Assembly: GCA_964016885.1 (NCBI GenBank)
Contig: OZ024762.1
Coordinates: 28,954,001 to 29,018,000 of the forward strand
Length of the DNA: 64,000 bases
Direction of reading: 5' to 3'
Origin: Eledone cirrhosa
Taxonomy: Eukaryota
Made by a program: the position numbers and the translations under genes. The number at the start of each line of letters is the position of its first letter. Positions within the stretch are counted from its first letter, which is position 1. This document shows positions 6,872 through 62,081 of this stretch, piece by piece. Below the pieces are notes generated by a model, which was given only the letters and a program-made list of their open reading frames with translations, ran no database searches and was not told where the DNA came from.

Positions 6872-7072
6872 GTTTTTCTGCAGCACAAAATAAATTCTCA
6901 ATAATAGTGTTGGTATCAAATGACAAAAAACACAGAATATGTAAGAAGATTTCCAATCTAGAGAAGACAAAAGTTATTGATGTGCAATGTTCTAGTCCTG
7001 TTAAGGGCAACAAAATCACAATAATTCTGCTGTCAGGACCTAGCCTTAGCATGTGTGAAGTGGAGGTCTTTC
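6872..7072 (+). CDS. Exon: C-terminal part of an F-type lectin / galactose-binding-like domain
   Basis: Polypyrimidine tract + ACCAG acceptor (alternative CTGCAG gives start 6884); encodes ...ICKKISNLEKTKVIDVQCSSPVKGNKITIILLSGPSLSMCEVEVF; donor C|GTAAGT, phase 1. L/MCEVEVF is the typical ending of this fold. Confidence 0.8.
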
Positions 7073-7689
7073 GTAAGTATATAGATACCTTTATACCTTT
7101 AACATAAATCAGGATAGAACCAGTTTAAAACTAGTTAGATCATTACTGAACAGAGTATTTGATACATGGGTTAGTAAGGGTAAAAGGTAAAGAGATCCTT
7201 CGGTCACGAATGTCCATTGAATTTGAGTCTAGAAAGTTCCCCTCCAAGGCACAAGTCTAGGCAAGGTTGTTTTGTAGAAGACCAGCAGTAGCCCATGCAT
7301 AACAGCCTCCCCTCTCTATGCCACTGATATTGTCCAAGGGAAAGGCAATGGCCGATACAGCTTGGCACCAGTGACATCGCAACCTATTTCCACAGCTGAG
7401 TGAACTGGAGCAACGTGAAATAAAGTGTCTTGCTCAAGAACACAACACAAAGCCCGCGGTAGTAGAGCATGGCTATTTTATAAAGAGCAAGAGCTCAGCC
7501 AGCATGTCCTTTCTCTTTATAATATACCTTTAACATATATACATATATATTAGGGTGTTTCATATTTATAGGGAAACAGGTTTTAGTTGAAATCATCTCA
7601 TGTCGATTATGCTCTGAATTCATTTGACATAAAAACTACAAAAACACAAACACGAGGAGATACAAAAATATTTAGGAGTTGCACAGTTT

Positions 7690-7940
7690 GGTGCATTGCC
7701 TAGTGGTAAGGGTGTTGGACTTAGAATCATAATGTCATGGGTTCGATTCCTGAGCTGGGTTAGATGTTGTGTTCTTGAGCAAAACACTTCACTTCACATT
7801 GCTCCAGTATACTCAGCTGAAAATGAGTACCAGTAATAGCTGGAGGTTTAACCCTGTGATGGACTGGTGTCCTGTCCAGGGGGGAATCTTGTACTCCCAG
7901 TCGCTTCACGCCATGAAACAGAGATAAGCACCAGCCTAAC
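7690..7940 (+). mobile_element. tRNA-headed SINE (family B, CORE-like centre)
   Basis: A-box-like TGCCTAGTGG, B-box GGTTCGATTCC, then TGTTGTGTTCTTGAGCAAAACACTT...TTGCTCCAGT...ACTCAGCTG; related copies near 7380-7450 and 8110-8285 on the - strand. Confidence 0.7.
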
Positions 7941-8745
7941 GAAAAATATATTGTATTATATAGCTGAAAATGAGTACCAGTAATAGCTGGAGGTTTAACA
8001 CTGTGATGGACTGGTGTCCTGTCCAGCGAGGTTGTTGTTGTTACAGCTCACACATATGCAGGTTTAGCTGGCCTCCTCCAAGGTATATCTCGTTGGAGGT
8101 GTCTAGGGTAATTTAATGATAGGGACCCCAGTCCTATCATTTCATTTCTACAGCTGATTAAACTGGAGCAATGTGAAATAAAGTGTCTTGCTCAAGGAAA
8201 CAACACATCACCTGGTCCGAGAATTGAACTCACAACCTTTCGATTGCAAGCCAATGCTCTAACCACTAAGCCATGTGCCTTCACAGCAAGGTGTCTTGTA
8301 CTTCAAGTTGCTTCATGCCATGAAACCGAGATAAGCATTGGCCTAACAAGCCTTCTGGTTTAAGACAGACTTTTTTAGACAGTGTGATGCTTTTCCAATG
8401 CCATGCCAAAAAAAAAAAAAAATGAATAAGATTTTACTTGTTGATTATAACCAGTTTGAATTTTTGTGCATTTTCATCCATTTTCATCTATGTTCTTGCA
8501 GGAGACAATTCTAAATGAAAAAGAAATGAACCGTAAACTTAAAGTGGAATAAGGGCAGTTTCAGGTGGTTTGGAATGTAACTTAACAAAGGTTCTTACAT
8601 GAAATTAGATGGAAGATTTTTAGATAATATAAAGGCTTTGGAATAAACAATTTTGTAGCATAGAACCTGGGGCAGTTCAGGTGGTTTGGAATATAACTTA
8701 ACAAAGGTTCTTAAATGAAATTATAATGGAATGTAAACAGTTTAA

Positions 8746-9972
8746 CCCTTTAGCATTTAAACTGGCCATATCCGGCCAGAATTCTCTAACCTCTGTTCAA
8801 ATCAGCTGCAACTGGCCACTCATACTGATGTTAAGGTTTTCTTCTCAAAATAAATAATATTAAAATCTTGTAGATTCAATATTATGTGAGATAATTATGT
8901 GAGGTAAAGCATTTACCATGAAAATACAATAGTAAATACAGGGTAATGTAAATGTTATGTGAGATAATTATGTGAGGTAAAGCCTTTACCATGAAAATAC
9001 AATAGTAAATACAGAGTAATGTAAATGTTATGTGAGATAATTATGTGAGGTAAAGCCTTTACCATGAAAATACAATAGTAAATACAGAGTAATGTAAATG
9101 TTATGTGAGATAATTATGTGAGGTAAAGCCTTTACCATGAAAATACAATAGTAAATACAGAGTAATGTAAATGTTATGTGAGATAATTATGTGAGGTAAA
9201 GCCTTTACCATGAAAATACAATAGTAAATACAGGGTAATGTAAATAATTATGTGAGGTAAAGCCTTTACCATGAAAATACAATAGTAAATACAGAGTAAT
9301 GTAAATGCTATGTGAGATAATTGTGTGAGGTAAAGCCTTTACCATGAAAATACAATAGTAAATACAGAGTAATGTAAATGCTATGTGAGATAATTATGTG
9401 AGGTAAAGCCTTTACCATGAAAATACAATAGTAAATACAGGGTAATGTAAATGTTATGTGAGATAATTATGTGAGGTAAAGCCTTTACCATGAAAATACA
9501 ATAGTAAATACAGGGTAATGTAAATGTTATGTGAGATAATTATGTGAGGTAAAGCCTTTACCATGAAAATACAATAGTAAATACAGGGTAATGTAAATGT
9601 TATGTGAGATAATTATGTGAGGTAAAGCCTTTACCATGAAAATACAATAGTAAATACAGGGTAATGTAAATGTTATGTGAGATAATTATGTGAGGTAAAG
9701 CCTTTACCATGAAAATACAATAGTAAATACAGAGTAATGTAAATGCTATGTGAGATAATTATGTGAGGTAAAGCCTTTACCATGAAAATACAATAGTAAA
9801 TACAGGGTAATGTAAATGTTATGTGAGATAATTATGTGAGGTAAAGCCTTTACCATGAAAATACAATAGTAAATACAGGGTAATGTAAATGTTATGTGAG
9901 ATAATTATGTGAGGTAAAGCCTTTACCATGAAAATACAATAGTAAATACAGGGTAATGTAAATGCTAAAGGG
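8746..9972 (+). mobile_element. TTAA (piggyBac-like) MITE with expanded internal tandem repeat
   Basis: TTAA|CCCTTTAGCATTTA ... TAAATGCTAAAGGG|TTAA: perfect 14-bp terminal inverted repeats and TTAA duplication. Confidence 0.85.
8880..9965. repeat. 73-bp minisatellite, ~15 copies, inside the MITE
   Basis: GTAATGTAAATGTTATGTGAGATAATTATGTGAGGTAAAGCCTTTACCATGAAAATACAATAGTAAATACAG(A/G) recurs at 8943, 9016 and onward. Confidence 0.95.
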
Positions 9973-10009
9973 TTAAAATAAACAGCATTGTCAAAGTGCA
10001 GATTGAAAT

Positions 10010-10390
10010 AATTGTTTCTACTGTTGGCACAAGGCCAGCAATTTGAAGGGAAGGGGGAAAGTCGATTTAAATGACCCCAGTGTGTGACTGGTACTTTATT
10101 TTATCGACCCCGTAAGGATGAAAGGCCAAGCTAACTTTGGCGGGTTTTGAACTCAGAATGGAAAGGGTCGTAACTCAATACCGCAAAGCATGGTGTTCGA
10201 CACTCTCACGATACTGCCAATCCACCGCCCTTGATTAAAATAATGGTTCCTTATATAGGCACAAGACCCCGTAAGGATGAAAAGCAAAGTTAACCTCGGC
10301 GGGATTTGAACTCAGATCATAAAGGGCCATAACTTTATGCCGCAAAGCATGGTGTTCGATGCTCCACCGATTCTGCCAATCCACTGCCCT
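10010..10390 (-). mobile_element. Two adjacent family-A SINEs (second internally deleted)
   Basis: Both match 6263-6475 and end ...CTGCCAATCCACCGCCC / ...CCACTGCCC. Confidence 0.75.
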
Positions 10391-10427: not shown

Positions 10428-10562
10428 AATGTCTCCCTGGATTCTATGGAAGAAATTGTAAAGAAGAGTGCAACAACTGCAGAAAGACATGTGATCAATT
10501 GACTGGCAAATGTGTGACTGGATGTAAAGATGGATATATTGATGTGAATAACACTTGTAAAG
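10428..10562 (+). CDS. EGF-like exon 1 (135 bp)
   Basis: TTTCTAG| ... |GTGAGT; CLPGFYGRNCKEECNNCRKTCDQLTGKCVTGCKDGYIDVNNTCK. Confidence 0.92.
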
Positions 10563-11230
10563 GTGAGTGGTGGTGGGGGTGGAGTGTAGGTGGTTGTCAT
10601 GGTTATAGTGGGAGTGGAGTGTTGGTGGCTGTTGTGGTTATAGTGGGAGTGGAGTGGAGGTGGTGGTGGAGTGGAGGTGGCTGTCATGGTTATAGTGGGA
10701 GTGGAGTGTAGGTGGTGCTGGAGTGGAGGTGTTGGTGGTGCTGGAGTGTAGGTAGTTGTGATGGTGGTGGAGTGTAGGTGGCTGTTGTGGTTTTAGTGGG
10801 AGTGGGGTGTAGGAGGTGGTGGTGACGGTGGTGGTGGAGTGTAGGTAGTTGTGGTGGTGAGGATGGTGTTGGTGGAGTGTAGGTGGCTGTCGTGGTTATA
10901 GTGGGAGGGGAGTGTAGGTGGTGGTGGAGTGGAGGTGTTGGTGGTGGAGTGTAGGTAGTTGTGCTGGTGGTGGTGAGGATGGTGTTGGTGGAGTGTAGGT
11001 GGCTGTCGTGGTTTTAGTGGGAGTGGAGTGTAGGTGGTGGTGGAGTGGAGGTGTTGGTGGTGGTGAGGATGATGTTGGTGGTGGTGATGGTGTTGGTGGA
11101 GTGTAGGTGGTGATGGTGGTGGTGGAGTGGAGGTAGTTGTGGTGGTGGTGGTGAGGAGGATGCTGTTTTGTTGTTGTTGGTGTGGTGGTGGTGGTGGTGC
11201 TGCTGCTGCTGGTGATAGTGGTGGTGGTAT
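10563..11230. repeat. Complex (GGT)/(GGAGT)-rich low-complexity tract
   Basis: Degenerate GGTGGTGGAGTGTA units directly after the donor; related tract at ~17290-17580. Confidence 0.85.
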
Positions 11231-11311
11231 TGCATATTGTAGTAGGTATTGTTGATGTTGTTTAGCCCCAGGTAAGCCAACATCCAACAGACCTGCCAAG
11301 AGTGGTCTCAG

Positions 11312-11530
11312 ATGGTGCTTGGAACATAACTTAACAAAGGTTGTTAGTATTGTAAGAACAAGGTCCACATCTGGCAGTTTGGTATCAAAAGGGTTAAGAT
11401 GGTATTTGGAACATAACTTAACAAAGGTTGTTAGTATTGTTAGAACAAGGTCCACATCTGGCAGTTTGGTATCGAAACGGTTAAGATGGTATTTGGAACA
11501 TAACTTAACAAAGGTCCTTAGTATTGTAAG
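11312..11530. repeat. 87-bp tandem repeat, ~2.5 copies (again at ~17665-17883)
   Basis: GGAACATAACTTAACAAAGGTTGTTAGTATTGT...GGTATCAAAAGGGTTAAGATGGTATTT at 11321, 11408, 11495. Confidence 0.85.
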
Positions 11531-11642
11531 GGTTGATTAATCCTATTAATCCTTTGTATTCTTACTCAGTTGAACCTCATTTTTTTCACAAATGTTTAAT
11601 GAGATAAAAGAGCAGAGGTTTTCTCATGATCTTTCATTGTAG

Positions 11643-11780
11643 AATGTCCAGAGGGGAAATTTGGACCAAACTGTGGCAACACATGCCCCTGTGCTGACAA
11701 CAGCAGGTGTAACAAACAGACAGGTGTGTGTTCAAGTGGGGGATGTGCTGCTGGTTATGAAGGTAGCAATTGTCAGACAG
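11643..11780 (+). CDS. EGF-like exon 2 (138 bp)
   Basis: CATTGTAG| ... CAG|GTAAGT; CPEGKFGPNCGNTCPCADNSRCNKQTGVCSSGGCAAGYEGSNCQT. Confidence 0.93.
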
Positions 11781-11844
11781 GTAAGTGGTGTAGTATAGCT
11801 TTTTTTGTAACATAATATATTGTGTCCAGACAATAGTAGGTGCT

Positions 11845-12080
11845 TATCCCATTTTTATGGTGTGGAACGACTGAGAGTACAAGACTCCTCCCTGGACAGG
11901 ACGCCAATCCATCGTGGGGTCAAAACCCCAGCTATTGCTGGTACTCGTTTTCAGCTGAGTATACTGGAGCAGCGTGAAATGAAGTGTTTTGCTCAAGAAT
12001 ACAACACACAACTCAGCCCAGGAATCGAACCCATGACATTATGATTGTAAGTCCAACACCCTTACCACTAGGCCACACAC
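11845..12080 (-). mobile_element. Family-B SINE (duplicate at ~18200-18435)
   Basis: Reverse complement of 7690-7900: CAGCTGAGTATACTGGAGC...GCTCAAGAA...GGAATCGAACC...TTACCACTAGGC. Confidence 0.75.
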
Positions 12081-12171
12081 CTCCACTATGCATGTGCATC
12101 TGTCTGTATAATTGTCTCTTCTTCTTCTTCATCCTCATGTTTTCTGTTGTTGTTGCTTTATTCCATTGCAG

Positions 12172-12309
12172 TGTGTGCATCTGGTTCATTTGGTCCTAAC
12201 TGCAAGTATATGTGCCACTGTGCAGACAACAGTAAATGTAATATAGTGTCAGAGATATGTTCAAGTGGAGGATGTGCAGTTGGTTACAAGGGAAGTAACT
12301 GCCAGACAG
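12172..12309 (+). CDS. EGF-like exon 3 (138 bp)
   Basis: CATTGCAG| ... CAG|GTTAGT; CASGSFGPNCKYMCHCADNSKCNIVSEICSSGGCAVGYKGSNCQT. Confidence 0.92.
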
Positions 12310-12445
12310 GTTAGTAACCTACCACCAGATAGCGTTGTTTACACAACCATCCCTTCATACAACAACACTGTTTAAATGTTGAGAATCAATGAGTCCTTAA
12401 TTTTTTTTTATATCAAACCACATAAGACTGCCCCTGCTTCTAGGG

Positions 12446-12764
12446 CAGGGGCATGTAGCAGGCGGCCCGTGGGCCACAATCCGCCCTGCCAGACCAGTCA
12501 AAGTGGCCCGCGGTGACCATTTTAAATGTTTACCTTGTAGGCCTATTTACAATTTTTTTCATAACCGTAATACAATTTTCTGTTAGTTGACCTATACTAA
12601 AGGGCTTCACTGATAGGGTTGTGTGTGTTATACTTTCCCAGTTCCATGTTATGGAAAGAAGTTGTGGTGAATCTTCGGAATAGTGCTTAATAAATATTAA
12701 TAGCCCTAATAATTGTTCCAATGTTCAAAAGTGGCCCGCCAATGGAATATGTTGCACACCCCTG
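12446..12764. mobile_element. hAT (Charlie-like) MITE
   Basis: CAGGGG...CCCCTG termini, GGCCCG subterminal motifs, perfect 8-bp TSD TTCTAGGG at 12438-12445 and 12765-12772. Confidence 0.88.
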
Positions 12765-13644
12765 TTCTAGGGTACAAAATTGTTTAGTTTAAAGTGGTTA
12801 TGTATGTATGTATATATGTACATATGTACATATGTCAGGTGACCAGTTGGTGCTACTGGTAACATGTATCCCAGTACAACCTGTCTCATGGTCGGGTCGT
12901 TGGCGACTGAAATGGTAACCCCACCAAGGTTTCTTAGTGAGGAGGGTGACTTTGGACATCCTGCAGGACTAAAAACAAAACCTGTGAAAGGGCAACGGAG
13001 CTTTTAAGTGTCAATGGCCATCCAAAATCACCGGGAGAGATGACCCCTTAGCCTTTGTCAAGGCAGAATTCTAGAAGGAAAACTCTGATATAACACCTAC
13101 AACCCTGATGGTATCCAATGATGTTGACTTGTTCTTCTTTTTGGTAAATATCATCTTAGTTAAGAGAGTGGGACTGGCTTTGTGCAGTGCCTTTGCTCAC
13201 TATAAAAGTTTCACGGCACAGGCATTGCTTTATATCTGGAGATCTCTCTGTACAGGAATTTTCAAGTCGCTGGCTGGACTAAAAAGTCACTTTTGTTCAG
13301 CGCATCGGTAGGGGTTCTCCTACATGGATATAAAGTAGTGGCCGTACTCGAAAACGAGTTGGCAGCCACCATGTACATATGTATGTATGTTAAATGGTAC
13401 AATCAGCACTCATTTAACTGGATAGACAGAAGAAGAAACACAGCACTATCCGAAATTATGCTAAATCATAAGGAGGCTAAAACAGAACCAGGTACAGTAC
13501 TCGTTTTCTTGGCGTATTCTCACAAATGCATTTCCATATTTATGCGAATCCTTTTTCATGTGGCTGTGATCTCTGTACAACGGAAGCTCAACACATTATT
13601 AATAGGAGACAGGAAGTAATTAACAAAGGCTCTGACCACTTTAA

Positions 13645-13857
13645 CCTTTAGCATTTAAACCGGCCATATCCGGCCAGAATTCTCTCACCTTTTTCTGTTC
13701 AAACCAGCCGTAACTGGCTGCTCATACTTATGTTAAGGTATTGTTCTCAAAATAAATAATATCAAAATCTTGTGTATTTGATATTATGTGAGATTATTAT
13801 GTGAGGTAAAGACTTTACAGAGAAAATACATTACAGAGTAATGTAAATGCTAAAGAG
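13645..13857 (+). mobile_element. Short copy of the TTAA MITE (single internal unit); duplicate at 20000..20212
   Basis: TTAA|CCTTTAGCATTTA ... TAAATGCTAAAGAG|TTAA; collinear with 8746-8970. Confidence 0.8.
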
Positions 13858-14618
13858 TTAATACTTGTATGCATAAAATATCTAAAACTTTCCTTAGATT
13901 AGATAGTTAACACATTCCATGCTAACTTCCACCTAGAGCTGAACATAATGACTAAATCTATACATTTAATGCATCCTTACATAGTTACACAAGAATCACC
14001 TTCTCTAATAATACACAGCCTGGATATATAGCTATGTAGTTCAAACAAATAAACAAAGTTCAAGTAAACAAAAAAATAAGTAGATTATTCGAACAAATTC
14101 TTTAACATATAGGAACGGGGGTTGGGGTGATGACTGACCCCTCTGGTAATTTGATACCTTAACCTACTTAGCATCCCTAGTATGTCAGCAACAATAGCAC
14201 CTCCTGCTTCATATCTGCCTACTAGAATAGCCATCCAAACCATATAACAACTGGACAGGAATGCAAACACAACTCTAACCCCCACTCCTTGGTAGCATAT
14301 CAAAAACAAAATAAAAGAACACAAATTTCAACTTGTCTGAAGAGAACATGTCAGAAAGTTATTATGCAACCGCTCTGACATCTTCGAAATACGTATAACA
14401 GAATTATGTAATAAACAGAAGTTGTACACTGTAAATGTGGTTGGTGTTAGGAAGGGCCTCCAGGGGTAAAAAACCTACCAAAGACAGTTCTGTACAAGCA
14501 AGACACGGTCTCCAGACCAATCTCACCTCAAGTGGAACAAAACCATCTAATCCAGACTAGTGTGGAAGATGGATGTTAAACAATGATGATGATGATGATG
14601 ATGATAACCATGATGATG

Positions 14619-15750: not shown

Positions 15751-15888
15751 GATGTGCCCATGGCATGTTTGGTGTCAACTGTGTGAAGAAGTGCCACTGT
15801 CTGAATAATGGCAAATGTTACTCTGACAATGGTATCTGCATCAATGGAAGGTGCTCACCTGGTTACAGGGGACACAGCTGCCAGTCAA
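15751..15888 (+). CDS. EGF-like exon 4 (138 bp, divergent type)
   Basis: TTTTCTCAG| ... A|GTAAGT; CAHGMFGVNCVKKCHCLNNGKCYSDNGICINGRCSPGYRGHSCQS. Confidence 0.93.
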
Positions 15889-15917: not shown

Positions 15918-17290
15918 AGGGAAGAGACAGGGACCACGACAGTATTTAGGGACTCACTGATTGGTGGAAGAGAAGAGACAGGGACCACGACAGTATTTAG
16001 GGACTCACTGATTGGTGGAAGAGAAGAGACAGGGACCACAACAGTATTAAGGGACTCACTGATTGGTGGAAGAGAAGAGACATGGACCACGACAGTATTA
16101 AGGGACTCACTGATTGGTGGAAGAGAAGAGACAGGGACCACAACAGTATTAAGGGACTCACTGATTGGTGGAAGAGAAGAGACAGGGACCATGATAGTAT
16201 TTAGGGACTCACTGATTGGTGGAAGAGAAGAGACAGGGACCACAACAGTATTAAGGGACTCACTGATTGGTGGAAGAGAAGAGACATGGACCACGACAGT
16301 ATTAAGGGACTCACTGATTGGTGGAAGAGAAGAGACAGGGACCATGATAGTATTTAGGGACTCACTGATTGGTGGAAGAGAAGAGACAGGGACCACAACA
16401 GTATTAAGGGACTCACTGATTGGTGGAAGAGAAGAGACAGGGACCACGGCAGTATTAAGGGACTCACTGATTGGTGGAAGAGAAGAGACAGAGACCACGA
16501 CAGTATTAAGGGACTCACTGATTGGTGGAAGAGAAGAGACAGGGACCACGACAGTATTAAGGGACTCACTGATTGGTGGAAGAGAAGAGACATGGACCAC
16601 GACAGTATTAAGGGACTCACTGATTGGTGGAAGAGAAGAGACAGGGACCATGATAGTATTTAGGGACTCACTGATTGGTGGAAGAGAAGAGACAGGGACC
16701 ACAACAGTATTAAGGGACTCACTGATTGGTGGAAGAGAAGAGACAGGGACCACGACAGTATTAAGGGACTCACTGATTGGTGGAAGAGAAGAGACAGGGA
16801 CCACAACAGTATTAAGGGACTCACTGATTGGTGGAAGAGAAGAGACAGGGACTACGGCAGTATTAAGGGACTCACTGATTGGTGGAAGAGAAGTAAGGGA
16901 CAGGAACCATGACAGTATTTAGGGACTCACTGATTGGTGGAAGAGAAGGAACAGGGACCAGAACAGTATTTAGGGTCCCCTAGATTGATGGAAAGGAAGG
17001 AAGGGACAGTAACCATTGCAATATTTAGGGTCTCCAAAATTAGTGGAAGGAATGGGAAGGTACTACAACAGTATTTAGGGTCTCCAAGATTACTGGAGGG
17101 AGGAACAGGAACCATGACAGTATTTAGGGACTCCCAGATTGGTGGAAGAGAAGGGACATGGACCACAACAGTATTTAGGGTCTCTCAGGTTGGTGGAAGA
17201 GAAAGGACAGTGACCATTACAATATTTAGGGTCTACAAGATTGGTGAAGTAATGGAATGGGACCACAACAGTATTTTGGATCTCCCAGAT
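15918..17290. repeat. 51-bp minisatellite, ~20 homogeneous copies then ~7 degenerate ones
   Basis: GAAGAGACAGGGACCACGACAGTATTAAGGGACTCACTGATTGGTGGAAGA; gives the 17-aa periodic ORFs. Confidence 0.95.
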
Positions 17291-17995
17291 GGTGGTGGTG
17301 ATGATGATGGTGGTGCTGGTGGTCGTGGTGGTGATGGTGATGGTGATGATGATGATGGTGGTGGTGGTGGTGATGGTGGTGGTGGTGGTGGTGGTGGTGT
17401 TGGTGGAGTGTAGGTGGCTGTCGTGGTTATAGTGGGAGTGGAGTGTAGGTGGTGATGGTGGTGGTGGAGTGGAGGTAGTTGTGGTGGTGGTGAGGAGGAG
17501 GATGCTGGTTTTGTTGTTGTTGGTGGTGTGGTGGTGGTGGTGCTGCTGCTGCTGCTGGTGATAGTGGTAGTGGTGGTGGTATTGCATATTGTAGTAGGTA
17601 TTGTTGATGTTGTTTAGCCCCCAGGTAAGCCAACATCCAACAGACCTGCCAAGAGTGGTCTCAGATGGTGCTTGGAACATAACTTAACAAAGGTTGTTAG
17701 TATTGTAAGAACAAGGTCCACATCTGGCAGTTTGGTATCAAAAGGGTTAAGATGGTATTTGGAACATAACTTAACAAAGGTTGTTAGTATTGTAAGAACA
17801 AGGTCCACATCTGGCAGTTTGGTATCAAAACGGTTAAGATGGTATTTGGAACATAACTTAACAAAGGTCCTTAGTATTGTAAGGGTTGATTAATCCTATT
17901 AATCCTTTGTATTCTTACTCAGTTGAACCTCATTTTTTTTACAAATGTTTAGTGAGATAAAAGAGCAGAGGTTTTCTCATGATCTTTCATTGTAG

Positions 17996-18133
17996 AATGT
18001 CCAGAGGGGAAATTTGGACCAAACTGTGGCAACACATGCCCCTGTGCTGACAACAGCAGGTGTAACAAACAGACAGGTGTGTGTTCAAGTGGAGGATGTG
18101 CTGCTGGTTATGAAGGTAGCAACTGTCAGACAG
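17996..18133 (+). CDS. EGF-like exon 5 (138 bp, duplicate of exon 2)
   Basis: Same splice sites and same peptide as 11643..11780; the differences seen are synonymous (GGG/GGA, AAT/AAC). Confidence 0.92.
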
Positions 18134-18524
18134 GTAAGTTGTGTAGTATAGCTTTTTTTGTAACATAATATATTGTGTCCAGACAATAGTAGGTGCTTAT
18201 CCCATTTTTATGGTGTGAAATGACTGAGAGTACAAGACTCCTCCCTGGACAGGACGCCAATCCATCGTGGGGTCAAAACCCCAGCTATTGCTGGTACTCG
18301 TTTTCAGCTGAGTATACTGGAGCAGCGTGAAATGAAGTGTTTTGCTCAAGAATACAACACACAACTCAGCCCAGGAATCGAACCCATGACATTATGATTG
18401 TAAGTCCAACACCCTTACCACTAGGCCACACACCTCCACTATGCATGTGCATCTGTCTGTATAATTGTCTCTTCTTCTTCTTCATCCTCATGTTTTCTGT
18501 TGTTGTTGCTTTATTCCATTGCAG

Positions 18525-18662
18525 TGTGTGCATCTGGTTCATTTGGTCCTAACTGCAAGTATATGTGCCACTGTGCAGACAACAGTAAATGTAATATAGT
18601 GTCAGGGATATGTTCAAGTGGAGGATGTGCAGTTGGTTACAAGGGAAGTAACTGCCAGACAG
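18525..18662 (+). CDS. EGF-like exon 6 (138 bp, duplicate of exon 3)
   Basis: GCAG| ... AG|GTTAGT; as exon 3 but VSGIC instead of VSEIC. Confidence 0.92.
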
Positions 18663-21240
18663 GTTAGTAACCTACCACCAGATAGCGTTGTTTACACAAC
18701 CATCCCTTCATACAACAACACTGTTTAAATGTTGAGAATCAATGAGTCCTTAATTTTTTTTACATCAAACCACATAAGACTGCCCCTGCTTCTAGGGCAG
18801 GGGCATGTAGCAGGCGGCCCGTGGGCCACAATCCGCCCTGCCAGACCAGTCAAAGTGGCCCGCGGTGACCATTTTCAATGTTTACCTTGTAGGCCTATTT
18901 ACAATTTTTTTCATAACCGTAATACAATTTTCTGTTAGTTGACCTATACTAAAGGGCTTCACTGATAGGGTTATGTGTGTTATACTTTCCCAGTTCCATG
19001 TTATGGAAAGAAGTTGTGGTGAATCTTCGGAATAGTGCTTAATAAATAATAATAGCCCTAATAATTGTTCCAATGTTCAAAAGTGGCCCGCCAATGGAAT
19101 ATGTTGCACACCCCTGTTCTAGGGTACAAAATTGTTTAGTTTAAAGTGGTTATGTATGTATGTATATATGTACATATGTACATATGTCAGGTCACCAGTT
19201 GGTGCTACTGGTAACATGTATCCCAGTACAACCTGTCTCATGGTCGGGTCGTTGGCGACTGAAATGGTAACCCCACCAAGGTTTCTTGGTGAGGAGGGTG
19301 ACTTTGGACATCCTGCAGGACTAAAAACAAAACCTGTGAAAGGGCAACGGAGCTTTTAAGTATCAATGGCCATCCAAAATCACCGGGAGAGATGACCCCT
19401 TAGCCTTTCTCAAGGCAGAATTCTAGGAGAAGGAAAACTCTAATATTACACCTGCAACCCTGATGGTATCCAATGATGTTGACTTGTTCTTCCTTTTGGT
19501 AAATATCATCTTAGTTAAGAGAGTGGGACTGGCTTTGTGCAGTGCCTTTGCTCACTATAAAAGCTTCACGGCACAAGCATTGCTTTATATCTGGAGATCT
19601 CTCTGTACAGGAATTTTCAAGTCACTGGCTGGACTAAAAAGTCACTATTGTTCAGCGCATCGGTAGGGGTTCTCCTACATGGATATAAAGTAGTGGCCGT
19701 ACTCGAAAACGAGTTGGCAGCCACCATGTACATATGTATGTATGTTAAATGGTACAATCAGCACTCATTTAACTGGATAGACAGAAGAAGAAGCACAGTG
19801 CTATCTGAAATTATGCTAAATCATAAGGAGGCTAAAACAGAACCAGGTACAGTACTCGTTTTCTTGGCGTATTCTCACAAATGCATTTCCATATTTATGC
19901 GAATCCTTTTTCATGTGGCTGTGATCTCTGTACAACGGAAGCTCAACACATTATTAATAGGAGACAGGAAGTAATTAACAAAGGCTCTGACCACTTTAAC
20001 CTTTAGCATTTAAACCGGCCATATCCGGCCAGAATTCTCTCACCTTTTTCTGTTCAAACCAGCCGTAACTGGCTGCTCATACTTATGTTAAGGTATTGTT
20101 CTCAAAATAAATAATATCAAAATCTTGTTGATTTGATATTATGTGAGATTATTATGTGAGGTAAAGACTTTACAGAGAAAATACATTACAGAGTAATGTA
20201 AATGCTAAAGAGTTAATACTTGTATGCATAAAATATCTAAAACTTTCCTTAGATTAGATAGTTAACACATTCCATGCTAACTTCCACCTAGAGCTGAACA
20301 TAATGACTAAATCTATACATTTAATGCATCCTTACATAGTTACACAAGAATCACCTTCTCTAATAATACACAGCCTGGATATATAGCTATGTAGTTCAAA
20401 CAAATAAACAAAGTTCAAATAAACAAAAAAATAAGTAGATTATTCGAACAAATTCTTTAACATATATGAACGGGGGGTGGGGTGATGACTGACCCCTCTG
20501 GTAATTTGATACCTTAACCTACTTACCATCCCTAGTATGTCAGCAACAATAGCACCTCCTGCTTCATATCTGCCTACTAGAATAGCCATCCAAACCATAT
20601 AACAACTGGACAGGAATGCAAACACAACTCTAACCCCCAATCCTTGGTAGCATATCAAAAACAAAATAAAAGAACACAAATTTGATGCCTGACCGATTTA
20701 ACTCACTCAATATGCAAATTAGGCTGCTCAGCCGTTAATTTTGATAAGGAAAGAATATACTTTCGAACGTTCAACTATCTGGCAGATGGGTAAACGGTGC
20801 TGATGATAGCTAACAAGCTTGAAACTAGTACATCGTTCCTGTGTCAGTGTTGAACAAAAAGGTGACGTGGTTGCCTTAACACCGTATGGCATAAATTCAG
20901 GCTGTTCAGTTTGTTGACAAACGAACAAAGCGGCGTTATAATAAGCGTCCGCTAAACTGATGCGTGCATATATGTATGTGTACCTGTATGTATATGTGTA
21001 TATATATATATATATGCATGCTACTGTACGTCCGTATACATATATGTATGTACGTATACATACATACTTACATTTAAGTAAGTGCCATACTAAGAGTGAG
21101 AAATGAAATTTCGTTTTCATTTTTTTCAACTTATATATATATACATATATATATATATAACTCTTATCTTATTGAGCCCTCTCCAGATTTTGGTGTTTCT
21201 ATTTATTATTAACTACTCTCTCACTTCTCTCTCTCTCTCT

Positions 21241-40529: not shown

Positions 40530-40667
40530 TCTGTAAAACAGGTAAATTTGGAGCCAACTGTAAATACACATGTCACTGCGCAGATAACAGCAGGTGTAAC
40601 AAAGAGACAGGTGTGTGTTCAGGTGGAGGATGTGCTGCTGGTTATGAAGGTAGCAACTGTCAAACAG
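40530..40667 (+). CDS. EGF-like exon 7 (138 bp)
   Basis: TATTTTCAG| ... CAG|GTAAGT; CKTGKFGANCKYTCHCADNSRCNKETGVCSGGGCAAGYEGSNCQT. Confidence 0.92.
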
Positions 40668-41394: not shown

Positions 41395-41531
41395 TCTGTA
41401 AACAGGTAAATTTGGACCCAACTGTAAATACACATGACACTGTGCTGATAACAGCAGGTGTAACAAAGAGACAGGTGTGTGTTCTAGTGGAGGATGTGCT
41501 GTTGGTTATGAAGGTAGCAACTGTCAGACAG
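41395..41531 (+). pseudogene. Damaged EGF exon copy (137 bp)
   Basis: Splice sites intact, but 1-bp deletion (TGTAAACAGG vs TGTAAAACAGG) and TGT>TGA at a conserved Cys. Confidence 0.85.
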
Positions 41532-41694: not shown

Positions 41695-41849
41695 GGTGTA
41701 AAACAGGTAAATTTGGACCTAACTGTAAACACACATGTCACTGTACTAACAACAGCAGGTGTAACAAACAGCTAGATGTAACACAGAGACAGGTGTGTGT
41801 TCCAGTGAAGTGTGTGGTGATGGTTATGAAGATAGCAACTGTAAGACAG
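41695..41849 (+). pseudogene. Damaged EGF exon copy (155 bp)
   Basis: Acceptor TTTTCAG; CKTGKFGPNCKHTCHCTNNSRCNKQ then a 17-bp internal duplication shifts the frame; donor replaced by GTGTGT. Confidence 0.8.
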
Positions 41850-42632: not shown

Positions 42633-42770
42633 TCTGTAGAAATGGTATATTTGGAGCCAACTGTGGCAACACATGTCACTGTGTTGACAACAGTAAATGT
42701 AACAAACAGTCAGGTATGTGTTCTAGTGGAGGATGTACTGCTGGTTATGAAGGTAGCAACTGTCAGACAG
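42633..42770 (+). CDS. EGF-like exon 8 (138 bp)
   Basis: TTTCCACAG| ... CAG|GTAAGT; CRNGIFGANCGNTCHCVDNSKCNKQSGMCSSGGCTAGYEGSNCQT. Confidence 0.93.
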
Positions 42771-46558: not shown

Positions 46559-46696
46559 TCTGTAAATCAGGTAAATTTGGAGCCAACTGTGGCAACACAT
46601 GTCACTGTGCTGACAACAGTAAATGTAACAAACAGACAGGTGTGTGTTCTAGTGGAGGATGTGCTGCTGGTTATGAAGGTAGCAACTGTCAGAGAG
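46559..46696 (+). pseudogene. EGF exon copy with intact frame but mutated donor
   Basis: ATTTCCAG acceptor; CKSGKFGANCGNTCHCADNSKCNKQTGVCSSGGCAAGYEGSNCQR; ends GAG|TTAAAT instead of CAG|GTAAGT. Confidence 0.7.
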
Positions 46697-46719
46697 TTAA
46701 ATAGTATAGTAATTAAACT

Positions 46720-47462: not shown

Positions 47463-47827
47463 GGTAAGTGATGTAGCATAACTTTGTTGTAGCATAATAT
47501 ATTGAAACAAATAAACAGCAGGTGTAACTTAGAGACAGGTGTGTGTTCCCATTGAAAGTGTGACATCACAACTCATTTCTATAGCTGAGTATCTTGAGCA
47601 ACATGAAATAAAGTGACTTGTTCAAGAACACAAAACACAGCAAGATTCAGGCATCGAACTCACAACTTTATGATTGTAAGCCTGACGCTCTTACCACTAA
47701 TCCTTGCGCCTTCAATAGATATAATATAGAGGAATAGATATAGTACAGCTATAGATATAATATAGGTTGTAGGGATATAGTACAGATGATATAGATATAA
47801 AATAGTTGATATCACTATAGTATAGAT

Positions 47828-51531: not shown

Positions 51532-51639
51532 GTATAGATGACAACACTATAATATAGATGATATAATATTGTGATATTTATTATCTTGTATAGTGTAAAT
51601 GTTGTTATAATTGTCATTGTTCTCATATTTTATTTCCAG

Positions 51640-51777
51640 TCTGTAAATCAGGTAAATTTGGAGCCAACTGTGGCAACACATGTCACTGTGCTGACAACAG
51701 TAAATGTAACAAACAGACAGGTGTGTGTTCTAGTGGAGGATGTGCTGCTGGTTATGAAGGTAGCAACTGTCAGACAG
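51640..51777 (+). CDS. EGF-like exon 9 (138 bp)
   Basis: ATTTCCAG| ... CAG|GTATAT; CKSGKFGANCGNTCHCADNSKCNKQTGVCSSGGCAAGYEGSNCQT. Confidence 0.88.
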
Positions 51778-51792
51778 GTATATGGTGTAGTA

Positions 51793-53550: not shown

Positions 53551-53688
53551 CCTGTCACATTGGTAAATTTGGAGCTAACTGTAAACACACATGCCACTGT
53601 GCTGATAATAACAGGTGTAACAAACAGACAGGTATGTGTTCTAGTGGAGGATGTACTGCTGGTTATGAAGGTAGCAACTGTCAGACAG
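53551..53688 (+). CDS. EGF-like exon 10 (138 bp)
   Basis: ATATTACAG| ... CAG|GTAAGT; CHIGKFGANCKHTCHCADNNRCNKQTGMCSSGGCTAGYEGSNCQT. Confidence 0.92.
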
Positions 53689-55351: not shown

Positions 55352-55489
55352 TCTGTAGAAATGGAAAATTTGGAGCCAACTGTGGCAACACATGTTACTG
55401 TGCTGACAACAGTAAATGTAACAAACAGACAGGTGTGTGTTCTAGAGGAGGATGTACTGCTGGTTATGAAGGTAGAAACTGTCAGCCAG
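55352..55489 (+). CDS. EGF-like exon 11 (138 bp)
   Basis: TTTCCACAG| ... CAG|GTAAGC; CRNGKFGANCGNTCYCADNSKCNKQTGVCSRGGCTAGYEGRNCQP. Confidence 0.92.
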
Positions 55490-55574
55490 GTAAGCTTTGT
55501 TTGCTACTTAATATATTTAGTCAAGATGATAGTAGGTGTAAGACAGAGACAGGTGTGTGTTCCAGTGGAAGGTG

Positions 55575-58500
55575 TGTTCCTGGTTATAAGGTAGCAGCTG
55601 TCAGACAGGTGTGTTACAGTAGATGGTGTGGTCCTGGTTATAAAGTAGCACCTGTCAGACAGGTGTGTTACAGTAGATGGTGTGGTCCTGGTTATAAGGT
55701 AGCACCTGTCAGACAGGTGTGTTACAGTAGATGGTGTGGTCCTGGTTATAAGGTAGCAGCTGTCAGACAGGTGTGTTACAGTAGATGGTGTGGTCCTGGT
55801 TATAAAGTAGCACCTGTCAGACAGGTGTGTTACAGTAGATGGTGTGGTCCTGGTTATAAGGTAGCACCTGTCAGACAGGTGTGTTACAGTAGATGGTGTG
55901 GTCCTGGTTATAAGGTAGCAGCTGTCAGACAGGTGTGTTACAGTAGATGGTGTGGTCCTGGTTATAAAGTAGCACCTGTCAGACAGGTGTGTTACAGTAG
56001 ATGGTGTGGTCCTGGTTATAAGGTAGCACCTGTCAGACAGGTGTGTTACAGTAGATGGTGTGGTCCTGGTTATAAGGTAGCACCTGTCAGACAGGTGTGT
56101 TACAGTAGATGGTGTGGTCCTGGTTATAAGGTAGCAGCTGTCAGACAGGTGTGTTACAGTAGATGGTGTGGTCCTGGTTATAAAGTAGCACCTGTCAGAC
56201 AGGTGTGTTACAGTAGATGGTGTGGTCCTGGTTATAAGGTAGCAGCTGTCAGACAGGTGTGTTACAGTAGATGGTGTGGTCCTGGTTATAAAGTAGCACC
56301 TGTCAGACAGGTGTGTTACAGTAGATGGTGTGGTCCTGGTTATAAGGTAGCACCTGTCAGACAGGTGTGTTACAGTAGATGGTGTGGTCCTGGTTATAAG
56401 GTAGCACCTGTCAGACAGGTGTGTTACAGTAGATGGTGTGGTCCTGGTTATAAGGTATCATCTATCAGACAGGTGTGTTACAGTAGATGGTGTGGTCCTG
56501 GTTATAAGGTAGCACCTGTCAGACAGGTGTGTTACAGTAGATGGTGAAGTCCTGGTTATAAGGTAGCACCTGTCAGACAGGTGTGTTACAGTAGATGGTG
56601 TGGTCCTGGTTATAAGGTAGCACCTGTCAGACAGGTGTGTTACAGTAGATGGTGTGATCCTGGTTATAAGGTATCATCTATCAGACAGGTGTGTTACAGT
56701 AGATGGTGTGGTCCTGGTTATAAGGTATCATCTATCAGACAGGTGTGTTACAGTAGATGGTGTGGTCCTGGTTATAAGGTAGCAGCTGTCAGACAGGTGT
56801 GTTACAGTAGATGGTGTGGTCCTGGTTATAAAGTAGCACCTGTCAGACAGGTGTGTTACAGTAGATGGTGAAGTCCTGGTTATAAGGTAGCACCTGTCAG
56901 ACAGGTGTGTTACAGTAGATGGTGTGGTCCTGGTTATAAGGTAGCACCTGTCAGACAGGTGTGTTACAGTAGATGGTGTGGTCCTGGTTATAAGGTAGCA
57001 CCTGTCAGACACGTGTGTTACAGTAGATGGTGTGATCCTGGTTATAAGGTATCATCTATCAGACAGGTGTGTTACAGTAGATGGTGTGGTCCTGGTTATA
57101 AGGTAGCACCTGTCAGACAGGTGTGTTACAGTAGATGGTGAAGTTCTGGTTATAAGGTAGCACCTGTCAGACAGGTGTGTTACAGTAGATGGTGTGGTCC
57201 TGGTTATAAGGTAGCAGCTGTCAGACAGGTGTGTTACAGTAGATGGTGTGGTCCTGGTTATAAAGTAGCACCTGTCAGACAGGTGTGTTACAGTAGATGG
57301 TGAAGTCCTGGTTATAAGGTAGCACCTGTCAGACAGGTGTGTTACAGTAGATGGTGTGGTCCTGGTTATAATGTAGCACCTGTCAGACAGGTGTGTTACA
57401 GTAGATGGTGTGGTCCTGGTTATATGGTAGCAGCTGTCAGACAGGTGTGTTACAGTAGATGGTGTGATCCTGGTTATAAGGTAGCACCTGTCAGACAGGT
57501 GTGTTACAGTAGATGGTGTGGTCCTGGTTATAAGGTATCATCTATCAGACAGGTGTGTTACAGTAGATGGTGTGGTCCTGGTTATAATGTAGCACCTGTC
57601 AGACAGGTGTGTTACAGTAGATGGTGTGGTCCTGGTTATATGGTAGCAGCTGTCAGACAGGTGTGTTACAGTAGATGGTGTGGTCCTGGTTATAAGGTAG
57701 CACCTGTCAGACAGGTGTGTTACAGTAGATGGTGTGGTCCTGGTTATAAGGTAGCACCTGTCAGACAGTTGTGTTACAGTAGATGGTGTGGTCCTGGTTA
57801 TAAGGTAGCACCTGTCAGACAGGTGTGTTACAGTAGATGGTGTGGTGCTGGTTATAAAGTAGCACCTGTCAGACAGGTGTGTTACAGTAGATGGTGAAGT
57901 CCTGGTTATAAGGTAGCACCTGTCAGACAGGTGTGTTACAGTAGCTGCTGTGGTCCTGGTTATAATGTAGCACCTGTCAGGCAGGTGTGTTACAGTAGAT
58001 GGTGTGGTCCTGGTTATATGGTAGCAGCTGTCAGACAGGTGTGTTACAGTAGATGGTGTGATCCTGGTTATAAGGTAGCACCTGTCAGACAGGTGTGTTA
58101 CAGTAGATGGTCTGGTCCTGGTTATAAGGTATCATCTATCAGACAGGTGTGTTACAGTAGATGGTGTGGTCCTGGTTATAATGTAGCACCTGTCAGACAG
58201 GTGTGTTACAGTAGATGGTGTGGTCCTGGTTATATGGTAGCAGCTGTCAGACAGGTGTGTTACAGTAGATGGTGTGGTCCTGGTTATAAGGTAGCACCTG
58301 TCAGACAGGTGTGTTACAGTAGATGGTGTGGTCCTGGTTATAAGGTAGCACCTGTCAGACAGTTGTGTTACAGTAGATGGTGTGGTCCTGGTTATAAGGT
58401 AGCAGCTGTCAGACAGGTGTGTTACAGTAGATGGTGTGGTCCTGGTTATAAGGTAGCACCTGTCAGACACGTGTGTTACACTAGATGGTGTGATCCTGGT

Positions 58501-60580
58501 TATAAGGTATCATCTATCAGACAGGTGTGTTACAGTAGATGGTGTGGTCCTGGTTATAAGGTAGCACCTGTCAGACAGGTGTGTTACAGTAGATGGTGAA
58601 GTCCTGGTTATAAGGTAGCACCTGTCAGACAGGTGTGTTACAGTAGATGGTGTGGTCCTGGTTATAAGGTAGCAGCTGTCAGACAGGTGTGTTACAGTAG
58701 ATGGTGTGGTCCTGGTTATAAAGTAGCACCTGTCAGACAGGTGTGTTACAGTAGATGGTGAAGTCCTGGTTATAAGTTAGCACCTGTCAGACAGGTGTGT
58801 TACAGTAGATGGTGTGGTCCTGGTTATAATGTAGCACCTGTCAGACAGGTGTGTTACAGTAGATGGTGTGGTCCTGGTTATATGGTAGCAGCTGTCAGAC
58901 AGGTGTGTTACAGTAGATGGTGTGATCCTGGTTATAAGGTAGCACCTGTCAGACAGGTGTGTTACAGTAGATGGTGTTGTCCTGGTTATAAGGTATCATC
59001 TATCAGACAGGTGTGTTACAGTAGATGGTGTGGTCCTGGTTATAATGTAGCACCTGTCAGACAGGTGTGTTACAGTAGATGGTGTGGTCCTGGTTATATG
59101 GTAGCAGCTGTCAGACAGGTGTGTTACAGTAGATGGTGTGGTCCTGGTTATAAGGTAGCACCTGTCAGACAGGTGTGTTACAGTAGATGGTGTGGTCCTG
59201 GTTATAAGGTAGCACCTGTCAGACAGTTGTGTCACAGTAGATGGTGTGGTCCTGGTTATAAGGTAGCACCTGTCAGACAGGTGTGTTACAGTAGATGGTG
59301 TGGTGCTGGTCATAAAGTAGCACCTGTCAGACAGGTGTGTTACAGTAGATGGTGAAGTCCTGGTTATAAGGTAGCACCTGTCAGACAGGTGTGTTACAGT
59401 AGATGCTGTGGTCCTGGTTATAATGTAGCACCTGTCAGGCAGGTGTGTTACAGTAGATGGTGTGGTCCTGGTTATATGGTAGCAGCTGTCAGACAGGTGT
59501 GTTACAGTAGATGGTGTGATCCTGGTTATAAGGTAGCACCTGTCAGACAGGTGTGTTACAGTAGATGGTCTGGTCCTGGTTATAAGGTATCATCTATCAG
59601 ACAGGTGTGTTACAGTAGATGGTGTGGTCCTGGTTATAATGTAGCACCTGTCAGACAGGTGTGTTACAGTAGATGGTGTGGTCCTGGTTATATGGTAGCA
59701 GCTGTCAGACAGGTGTGTTACAGTAGATGGTGTGGTCCTGGTTATAAGGTAGCACCTGTCAGACAGGTGTGTTACAGTAGATGGTGTGGTCCTGGTTATA
59801 AGGTAGCACCTGTCAGACAGTTGTGTTACAGTAGATGGTGTGGTCCTGGTTATAAGGTAGCAGCTGTCAGACAGGTGTGTTACAGTAGATGGTGTGGTCC
59901 TGGTTATATGGTAGTACCTGTCAGACAGTTGTGTTACAGTAGATGGTGTGGTCCTGGTTATAAGGTAGCAGCTGTCAGACAGGTGTGTTACAGTAGATGG
60001 TGTGGTCCTGGTTATAAGGTATCATCTTTCAGACAGGTGTGTTACAGTAGATGGTGTGGTCCTGGTTATAAGGTAGCAGCTGTCAGACAGGTGTGTTACA
60101 GTAGATGGTGTGGTCCTGGTTATTAGGTAGCACCTGTCAGACAGGTGTGTTACAGTAGATGGTGTGGTCCTGGTTATAAGGTAGCACATGTCAGACAGGT
60201 GTCTTACAGTAGATGCTGTGGTCCTGGTTATAAGGTATCATCTATCAGACAGGTGTGTTACAGTAGAAGGTGTGGTCCTGGTTATAAGGTAGCAGCTGTC
60301 AGACAGGTGTGTTACAGTAGATGGTGTGATCCTGGTTATAAGGTAGCACCTGTCAGACAGGTGTGTTACAGTAGATGGTGTTGTCCTGGTTATAAGGTAT
60401 CATCTATCAGACAAGTGTGTTACAGTAGATAGTGTAGTCCTGGTTATAAGGTAGCACCTGTCAGACAGGTGTGTTACAGTAGATGGTGTGGTCCTGGTTA
60501 TAAGGTATCATCTGTCAGACAGGTGTGTTACAGTAGATGGTGTGGTCCTGGTTATAAGGTAGCACCTGTCAGACACGTGT
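55575..60580 (+). repeat. 54-bp minisatellite (~93 copies) derived from the 3' half of the EGF exon
   Basis: Unit ACAGGTGTGTTACAGTAGATGGTGTGGTCCTGGTTATAAGGTAGCACCTGTCAG aligns with exon ACAGGTGTGTGTTCTAGTGGAGGATGTGCTGCTGGTTATGAAGGTAGCAACTGTCAG. Confidence 0.95.
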
Positions 60581-60809
60581 GTGCTCTTTTGTAGTTCTAT
60601 TTCTTTAGAAAATCTACCAGACAAATGGATGAATGTCCTCTTCAGTCATGATGAAATGTATCCAGTAACATCTGAGAGGTCAGTAGCTCCGATTAAGTTC
60701 TGAGTCGGTCTCTGTTGACACATCCCACTCTTGGTTACAGGGGAAGTGAATGTTAAATGTTCATCATGAGGAAGATGTGAGTAGCAGGGGCAGTAGAGTT
60801 ACAGATTAA

Positions 60810-61021
60810 CCCTTTAGCATTTACACTACTTCATATACACTATTATATTTTCACAGTAAAGGCTTTATCTCATATAATTATCTCACATAATATCAAATCT
60901 ATGAGATTTTGATATTATCTATTTTGAGAACAATACCTTAACATAAGTATGAGCAGCCAGTTATGGCTGGTTTGAACAGAAAGAAGTGAGAGAATTGTGG
61001 CCGGTTTAAATTCTAAAGGTT
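60810..61021 (-). mobile_element. Short TTAA MITE copy, reverse orientation, no LINE inside
   Basis: TTAA|CCCTTTAGCATTTACAC... TAAATTCTAAAGGTT|TTAA; collinear with 6200-6636 minus the SINE. Confidence 0.8.
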
Positions 61022-61584
61022 TTAATGGGTTGTGATTTTGAGTTCTTTTTTAAAACGGTATTCAAATCCCACCAAAATCAACTTTTTCTGTCATACTTTT
61101 GGAGTAGATAGAATAATATAGCAGTGAAATACCATGCAATGGACTAGCATCCTGTCCAGGTGTGGGGAATACAGTGGACTCTGCTCAGTGTGATACCTAC
61201 CGACAGTTAGAAGGACTGGGCTGTTGAATATACAAAAACAAAAAATGTCTAAAGTGTGTCTCGAGTGCTGAGGGTCATCAGGCCAGTGCTATCTATGGCA
61301 TGAAGTGACTTAAAATACAAAACTTCCCCTGGACAGGGCACCAGTCCATCCCAAGGTTAAATCACCAGCTATTACTGGCACTGATCTCCAAGCTTCCTGA
61401 AATTCGCCAACACTACACCTGATATCCCTCCTCCATACACACGTACATATGTTTATCATGACTCATACACTGTTCATTTTCCTGACATTTGTTCATTATT
61501 CTATGCGCTTTACATGCACCTTTGATGAGTTATAGTGCACCTGAGCACTGTACACAATAATTTCACTATTATTATTATTATACT

Positions 61585-61900
61585 GGAGCGGTGGATTGTC
61601 AGTATTGGTAGAGAGTCGGACGCCATGCTTTGAAGCATAGAGTTACGTCCCTTTATGATCTGAGTTCAAATCCCACCAAGGTTAACTTTGCATTTCATCC
61701 TTACGGGGTCGATAAAATATAGTACCAGTAATGTACTGGGAAATTGCTGGCCTTGTGTCAAAAGTAGAAACAATTATTATTATACTGGAGCAACATGAAT
61801 GGAAATACTTTTGCTCAAGAACACAACACACAACCTAGTTGAGGAATAGAACTCACAACATTATGATTGTAAGTCCAACACCCTTACCACAAGGCCACAC
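61585..61900. mobile_element. Family-A SINE (+, ~61585-61775) followed by family-B SINE part (-, ~61780-61900)
   Basis: Matches 15461-15645 and 11960-12080 respectively. Confidence 0.7.
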
Positions 61901-61943
61901 AAATACACACCAAAATATATATTTGTTATTGATTGATTTGTAG

Positions 61944-62081
61944 GATGTAAGAGAGGAAAATTTGGACCAAACTGTCGAAACATGTGTCATTGTGCTGACA
62001 AGAGTAAATGTAAGCCACAGACTGGTAGCTGCTCTAATGGAGGATGTGCTCCTGGATATGAAGGTGGCAACTGTCAGACAG
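61944..62081 (+). CDS. EGF-like exon 12 (138 bp)
   Basis: GATTTGTAG| ... CAG|GTAAGT; CKRGKFGPNCRNMCHCADKSKCKPQTGSCSNGGCAPGYEGGNCQT. Confidence 0.92.

Follow-up and report, generated by a model that had tools for sequence, protein, structure and literature searches.

An array of lectin and EGF exons in Eledone cirrhosa is probably a headless, tailless and decaying copy of one long receptor gene

Does an array of lectin and EGF-type exons in the 3.0-Gb genome of Eledone cirrhosa belong to a receptor gene that diversifies by gaining, losing and skipping exons? The array lies in a stretch of 64,000 nucleotides, C23:28,954,001–29,018,000, which we call the window. In an exhaustive scan of the window for exons bounded by AG and GT, we found 11 intact EGF-type exons of 138 bp and one of 135 bp, all of phase 1-1, in agreement with the twelve reported in a preliminary description that had read the array (6872..62081) as a lectin–EGF receptor gene in rapid exon birth and death. 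The EGF exon pattern is not due to chance, since the eight-cysteine spacing is identical in 50 of 50 138-bp exons of an intact receptor gene on C22, which we call the parent. We conclude that the window is the middle of a segmental copy of this C22 gene, without head or tail, and that it is likely a duplicate in decay which no longer codes for a product and was spread as repeats recombined with one another.

The ends of the parent gene are single-copy and its middle is multi-copy. The signal-peptide exon has one genome match (one candidate) and the membrane exon has one (both of two candidates scored), each on C22 only. For exon 2, where 40 of 793 candidates were scored and the rest were short repeat matches, a single full match was obtained; the EGF exon that comes first after the amplified part likewise has a single match (one candidate). 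The tail exon is matched in full once; in addition, C22 carries an isolated relic (C22:10,452,040–10,452,236) of the start of this exon, 93% identical and cut short by a stop. The second lectin exon is present in 24 copies at 95–100% amino-acid identity (three on C16, 14 on C20, one each on C22 and C23, and five on C27), the EGF exon preceding the lectin domain in 27, the first lectin exon in 27, and the last EGF exon of the C23 unit in 29, four of them on C19. All these counts include the parent and are lower bounds, the exact number and the chromosome placement being uncertain. The first lectin exon also has 11 older paralogues at 31–42% identity, which are probably the rest of the receptor family; they lie mostly on C2 (230.4–233.1, 257–262 and 314–315 Mb) and also at C17:40.2 Mb. 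The exons of the window thus do belong to a lectin–EGF receptor, as had been proposed, with the complete gene on C22, but the window itself has no signal-peptide, membrane or tail exons. Membrane and cytoplasmic exons had been expected downstream of the window; none follow, and beyond the last EGF exon of the copy there is spacer and then the next unit. The window copy has the features of a pseudogene formed by segmental duplication, in that its introns are kept, a near-identical complete parent exists and the gene ends are missing.

The parent gene, as predicted from DNA, has 64 exons spanning C22:1,662,610–1,792,563, with 9,105 nt encoding 3,034 amino acids, no internal stop and GT-AG borders at every intron. 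Its product begins with a signal peptide, an EGF module, a two-exon domain without identity, a second EGF module and a two-exon lectin domain; these are followed by 53 further EGF modules (55 in total), one membrane helix and a tail of ~185 residues. By hydropathy alone there are two hydrophobic peaks only, at residues 5–24 and 2828–2847, corresponding to the signal peptide and the membrane helix. Singly, the EGF exons give weak Pfam EGF matches, and one homologue matches Tie2. A block of 18 parent exons consists of internal duplicates that are 94–98.7% identical, and this block is down to three exons in one C16 copy. Since all stalk exons are of phase 1-1, the stalk can gain or lose modules through unequal crossing-over with the frame kept, and this is the exon birth noticed in the preliminary description. 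One parent EGF exon (C22:1,761,361–1,761,543) carries an in-frame glycine-rich microsatellite insert that brings it to 183 nt. The tail contains the motifs YEEF, YDEM, three EYEVM, EYGVM and YENE, and the last 200 residues hold five YxxM, no NPxY and no YxxL/I. Phosphorylated YxxM is a docking site for the p85 subunit of PI3K, and the five tail motifs, once phosphorylated, would recruit PI3K. In the tail exon the YxxM motifs are part of a tandem repeat of 33 bp, and alleles may therefore differ in how many signalling motifs they have. HMG-box matches on the tail were below cut-off and were disregarded; comparison of the tail with the ESM Atlas gave scores of 0.81 or less only, and word-indexed protein searches found no orthologue of the parent. 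We predict that the parent is a type I receptor with a non-canonical F-type lectin head on a 55-module EGF stalk, which when extended would perhaps reach 150–200 nm by rough estimate. Its role would most plausibly be in glycan recognition and engulfment by haemocytes.

For our account of the copies we read the C23 unit, the greater part of two C16 units and, at each of two places, 10-kb windows in another 20 copies. The amplified piece of the parent is ~75 kb long (C22:1,669,018 to ~1,744,800) and is joined to a transposon-rich spacer. The resulting unit of 100–140 kb occurs, whole or partial, in head-to-tail arrays and as single copies on C16, C19, C20, C23 and C27, with smaller scraps on C26. 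In those units of C23, C16, C20 and C27 that are free of gaps, a common spacer gives way to parent sequence at ~C22:1,669,000–1,670,300, inside a long terminal repeat (LTR)-like repeat beside gypsy-like frames. The longer units leave the parent sequence at ~1,744,800; the C23 type is without ~35 kb of it, a loss probably caused by recombination between two long interspersed nuclear elements (LINEs). Partial copies start at unrelated points, and each array end examined falls either within a satellite or at a gap adjoining one. The window's unit begins behind a gap of 200 N ~11.6 kb upstream, holds 20 intact EGF exons and leaves the parent sequence inside a LINE at window +79,601; 112.5 kb further on, the second C23 unit begins, which runs out in satellite at ~+117,000. 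Similar relics of C2H2 zinc-finger exons flank the C23 array (window −45,300 and +139,000) and loosely support its placement.

Copies have lost, duplicated or broken exons and have gained satellites and LINEs. Among the 40 parent EGF exons in the span of the window's unit, 15 are intact in the copy, two are broken and 23 are missing, and five extra duplicates have been added. The lectin intron has grown from 2,652 nt in the parent to 17,106 nt in the window copy via LINE insertion, and the span from 6872 to 62081 measures 26.9 kb in the parent against 55.2 kb in the window, much of it satellite. A copy on C19 (35.40–35.41 Mb) has one of the parent EGF exons three times in tandem at its start and no lectin exons.

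This anatomy makes it very unlikely that the window is in itself an entire receptor gene, expressed and diversified through the gain, loss and skipping of exons, as had been proposed. The exons, splice sites and frame are as described, and the gap on the 5′ side could hide a leader, but no membrane or tail exon follows before the next unit, the units that are free of gaps (on C23, C16, C20 and C27) carry no leader exons and all start from one repeat junction, and two of the three dead exons of the window are intact in the parent. The proposal is largely refuted by the single-copy searches.

It is also highly improbable that the copies are assembly artefacts, such as uncollapsed haplotypes or misplaced contigs. 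The copies diverge by 1.7–2.2% from the parent and by 0–1.3% from the window. Several C20 and C27 copies are 0–0.05% apart, one pair is identical over the sites compared, C16 is an unplaced scaffold of 810 kb, and there are gaps at some array ends, all of which would fit an artefact. However, the 23 copies fall into ~12 lineages more than 0.1% apart, where a diploid single gene gives two, and the copies carry private deletions, LINE insertions and stops, with gap-free junctions into satellites at several ends. DNA runs share 0.72–0.88 of the words of window 51540–51880, and the best run may be the source sample; as evidence that other samples contain the copies the runs are weak, because 201 of the 311 words are already present in the parent. 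Four runs presumed to be RNA share 0.06 of the words, and two presumed RNA runs and two others, when compared with the membrane and juxtamembrane exons of the parent, gave no contigs for the former and mere repeat scraps for the latter, which speaks neither for nor against expression.

How might the copies have spread? Four-gamete patterns among them indicate exchange between copies, and together with the breakpoints in repeats and the mosaic ends these patterns point to ectopic and unequal recombination. We infer that the parent piece was lifted once, through ectopic recombination at the LTR-like repeat, and it would then have spread via unequal exchange within satellite-rich DNA. The spacer contains a complete young Helitron (C16:538,837–545,200) with a Rep-helicase frame of 1,036 amino acids (Pfam PIF1 E=2.5e-62, Helitron_like_N E=4.4e-61), which raises the alternative that the unit is a giant transduction by this element via rolling-circle replication. 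A young Helitron is present in most units, 33 of its 40 best genome matches lie in amplicon regions, and some copies show changes in a second terminus that follows it, all of which would fit such a transduction. However, 13 of 13 amplicon Helitrons examined have one common upstream flank, while three of three dispersed copies have their own; the element therefore inserted once and rides as a passenger. The copies moreover start at many unrelated points, and the window's unit has lost its Helitron, so that transduction is extremely improbable in general and is refuted for the copies examined. Directly behind the Helitron, head to tail, lies a short non-autonomous copy, whose family is dispersed at 98–99% (400-bp probe). 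A selected RNA gene in the spacer was considered and rejected, as Rfam gave two weak tRNA-like matches only across the 12 loci scanned.

The coding state of the copies agrees in part with decay. The selection analysis covered 156 of 161 exon copies, five being dropped for uncertain orthology. We found 64 distinct amino-acid-changing or stop changes against 19 silent ones, which with a neutral silent share of 0.24 (from the intron spectrum) gives an omega of ~1.07. The copy exons carry six stops, two dead donors and several frameshifts, and the donor of the lectin exon is dead in 11 of 23 copies and intact in the parent and the window. The 24 young exons of the parent, selected by an intactness filter that tolerates six of eight cysteines and excludes stops, have an omega of ~0.46 (P=0.003) and have lost no cysteine where 9.3 losses are expected. 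The birth half of the proposed birth-and-death array is thus real in the parent, with its 55 EGF exons, 18-exon duplicate block and purifying selection. The death half fares less well: exon 41695 is dead in the parent too, but 41395 and 46559 are intact there. Judged by these comparisons of sequence, it is the parent in which new exons arise under constraint, and most of the exon deaths in the window are confined to the copy.

Several results weigh against a decaying duplicate. The 200-N gap leaves the start of the window copy itself unseen, and the copy is still open over 22 exons as a chain of 1,069 amino acids if the dead exons are skipped. The filter on the parent's young exons excludes stops and thereby favours a clean picture of the parent. 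Above all, the copy exons contain 19 variants where 37 are expected from the introns (P=0.0009), the expectation being computed with simple repeats masked and a trinucleotide model for base context. The deficit is also present in singletons (seven against 16.6), other exon–intron comparisons of the copies show the same tendency, and cysteine losses in copy exons number five against 10.7 expected. We considered low-complexity flanks, transposon paralogy, base context and clustering as its source, and the deficit persisted. The 19 variants comprise 12 missense, two stop and four silent changes and one at a junction. As missense and silent variants are both low, a lower mutation rate or homogenisation of exons fits better than selection at the protein level, the silent count being too small to decide the cause. 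The exon variant deficit is the one result that fits the neutral reading poorly. In supposedly dead copies it would mean either a hidden function or an effect of former exons on mutation rate.

A functional role of the copies would account for it. The head-to-tail arrays might be transcribed into long lectin–EGF chains, or might supply trans-spliced variants, small RNAs or templates for conversion. Besides the two-fold deficit of exon variants relative to introns, this idea draws on the phase 1-1 symmetry of all unit exons, by which the last EGF exon can splice in frame to the next unit, on the open 1,069-residue chain and on the exchange seen in the four-gamete patterns. We nevertheless consider it unlikely, given the neutral ratio of amino-acid-changing to silent changes, the six stops and the many dead lectin donors (11 of 23); in addition, the genome search found leader and membrane exons nowhere outside the parent, and the copies are only ~2% from the parent with little diversity. 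In its most elaborate form, the satellite-embedded arrays would be a selected and transcribed bank of receptor-ectodomain cassettes, spliced in frame unit to unit, trans-spliced to the leader and membrane exons of the parent, or serving as small-RNA or conversion templates that tune the 55-module receptor. This is quite unlikely, but if true it would explain exon mutation at half the intron rate, and unit-to-unit splicing on C20 would yield up to 14 lectin heads per chain.

By sequence the lectin domain is of the F-type. The window contains the exon for the second half of the domain, and the first half lies ~10.5 kb upstream of the window start. By phmmer the first lectin exon matches 3cqo (E=2e-8), 2j22 (7.6e-7) and 1k12 (3.1e-5), and its Pfam match to PF22633 (E=5e-5) is of half a domain and under the curated cut-off. 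The fold predicted for homologue P0112 has a mean predicted local distance difference test score of 39, too poor to identify the N-terminal domain, and its lectin region matches 1k12 at E=2.8e-7. The accessible part of one source (PMC5712786) gives the cation motif of F-type lectins as h2DGx and the fucose triad of eel agglutinin as His52, Arg79 and Arg86, printed as HX24RXDX4R/K, and describes F-type lectin domains that deviate from this triad. The cation motif is present in the parent as AVDGN. The triad is incomplete, with His278 and a Lys at +34 present and Asn/Tyr in the place of Arg79, and fucose binding by the parent lectin is doubtful from these residues. The Lys falls at the eel spacing only if the second lectin exon starts at 6884, which supports this acceptor; it is also the acceptor common to the parent, the AG before 6872 being a variant in 12 of 23 copies.

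Among described receptors, the scavenger class F-like subgroup 1B of Biomphalaria (PMC13712769) has the same architecture as the predicted parent. As far as the accessible text of that source describes it, the predicted parent shares with this subgroup a signal peptide, EGF-type repeats, a galactose-binding/fucolectin signature, one membrane helix and a cytosolic part without a recognised domain. It differs in its 55 EGF modules, 3,034 residues, five-YxxM tail and amplified middle, and the window copy differs further by being without the signal-peptide and membrane exons, which are both on C22 only. With the MEGF/GBD receptor tyrosine phosphatases, in the accessible text represented by SudRes1 of B. 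sudanica (subgroup 1C; PMC12297450), the parent shares the order EGF, EGF, lectin, EGF and membrane helix, and the Octopus vulgaris member CAI9733300.1 is ~38% identical over the lectin half-domain. Compared with the phosphatases as described there, the parent as modelled is without a phosphatase domain and stops ~185 residues past the membrane. A scan of two tail exons gave no match to a phosphatase domain, although the gene may have another 3′ end that extends further.

The closest named single-domain matches are two octopus proteins that carry automatic names, 'protein draper' (XP_029644740.2) and 'fucolectin-5' (XP_052834030.1), at 40–46% over the lectin exon. They have the same exon-sized modules, are much shorter than the parent and show identity at the level of paralogues. 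Draper, MEGF10 and CED-1 have an N-terminal EMI domain and tail motifs NPxY and YxxL. The parent resembles them in its array of eight-cysteine EGF modules, single membrane helix and tyrosine-motif tail, but has neither NPxY nor YxxL and bears an F-type lectin domain instead of EMI; no EMI match was found in the four N-terminal parent exons scanned singly. At the level of the amplicon, human pericentromeric duplicons are partial gene copies near satellite DNA, and the window copies are like them in keeping introns, in identity of at least 98%, in mosaic ends, in chromosome swaps and in decay. They differ in that all exons here are frame-symmetric and in the exon variant deficit.

These results change the reading of some 25–30 loci that resemble lectin–EGF receptor genes in annotation, which reduce to one gene and its fragments, and they counsel caution towards claims of expanded recognition-receptor families in molluscs. 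Neither the receptor class nor the amplification of gene fragments in a genome is new. We did not find a 55-module stalk with a YxxM-repeat tail and a middle amplified ~25–30 times, or a segmental-duplication amplicon of this kind in a cephalopod, in the literature searched, supplements unseen. The parent is an unusually long member of its class, whose stalk continues to lengthen as exons duplicate and whose tail repeats the YxxM motif, and its predicted architecture makes it a concrete candidate for a receptor that serves engulfment or glycan recognition in a cephalopod. In snails, the class is tied to parasite resistance in the accessible parts of two studies (PMC12297450, PMC13712769).

The remaining features of the window all lie on the + strand. 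The 189-nt second exon of the F-type lectin (6884..7072, phase 1-1) is one of the 24 genome copies, and the extra upstream AG that would start it at 6872 is a copy-specific variant. It is followed by the 135-bp EGF-type exon (10428..10562; parent C22:1683093) and by 138-bp EGF exons at 11643..11780 (parent 1684009; with a His>Pro change common to nine copies), 12172..12309 (parent 1684537) and 15751..15888 (parent 1687617; the divergent type). A tandem duplicate of 10939–14328 lies at 17290..20683 (96.8%), with exons 17996–18133 and 18525–18662, and is not in the parent. Further 138-bp exons are at 40530..40667 (parent 1694682), 42633..42770 (parent 1696697), 51640..51777 (parent 1700390/1703355), 53551..53688 (parent 1704137), 55352..55489 (parent 1705628) and 61944..62081 (parent 1707268); the next 21 parent EGF exons are missing from the window copy. 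A second tandem duplication pairs 43421–46952 with 46704–51985, so that at least two such events are present, as had been proposed; as to their being recent, the first is absent from the parent. The three dead exons are likewise as first reported: 41395..41531 has a 1-nt deletion and a stop (parent 1695510 intact), 41695..41849 a 17-nt insertion (parent 1695811, dead too), and 46559..46696 a TT donor, which is intact in both parent counterparts (1700390 and 1703355). A candidate extra exon starting with CVATR proved spurious.

High similarity among the exons, which had been claimed for most of them, applies to a close family of seven of the 11 138-bp exons (83–99% pairwise). The others are more distant: 61944 is 59–81% identical to the other 138-bp exons, 12172 and 18525 are 59–74% identical to the others and 99% to each other, and 15751 is 54–60% identical to the others. 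Variation is not confined to residues 2–5 and 11–15, since positions 17, 24, 25, 28, 31 and 41 each show four residues in the 138-bp exons of the window. Nor is the C-terminal end fixed, the motif deviating in 15751.

Repeats fill much of the space between the exons. A LINE retrotransposon with open reading frames for a zinc-knuckle ORF1, endonuclease and reverse transcriptase (488..6129; Pfam RVT_1 E=3.7e-23) is absent from the parent. It is the second of a tandem pair, its twin lying upstream, in the intron that splits the lectin domain. Such tandem zinc-knuckle LINEs lie inside a 72-bp repeat, two per C23 unit, and several arrays start or end right at a LINE; we take them to be possibly a target-specific element, presumably Tx1-like. 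Between 30917 and 39621, several young RTE-like LINE pieces (88–96% alike) fill a 22-kb intron in which two parent EGF exons are missing. At 55555..60582 the 3′ half of an EGF exon has given rise to a 54-bp minisatellite, whose units number 93 here, one to two in the parent and dozens in two C16 copies, and a second exon-derived repeat, of ~38 bp, is found at C22:1,712,600–1,713,080.

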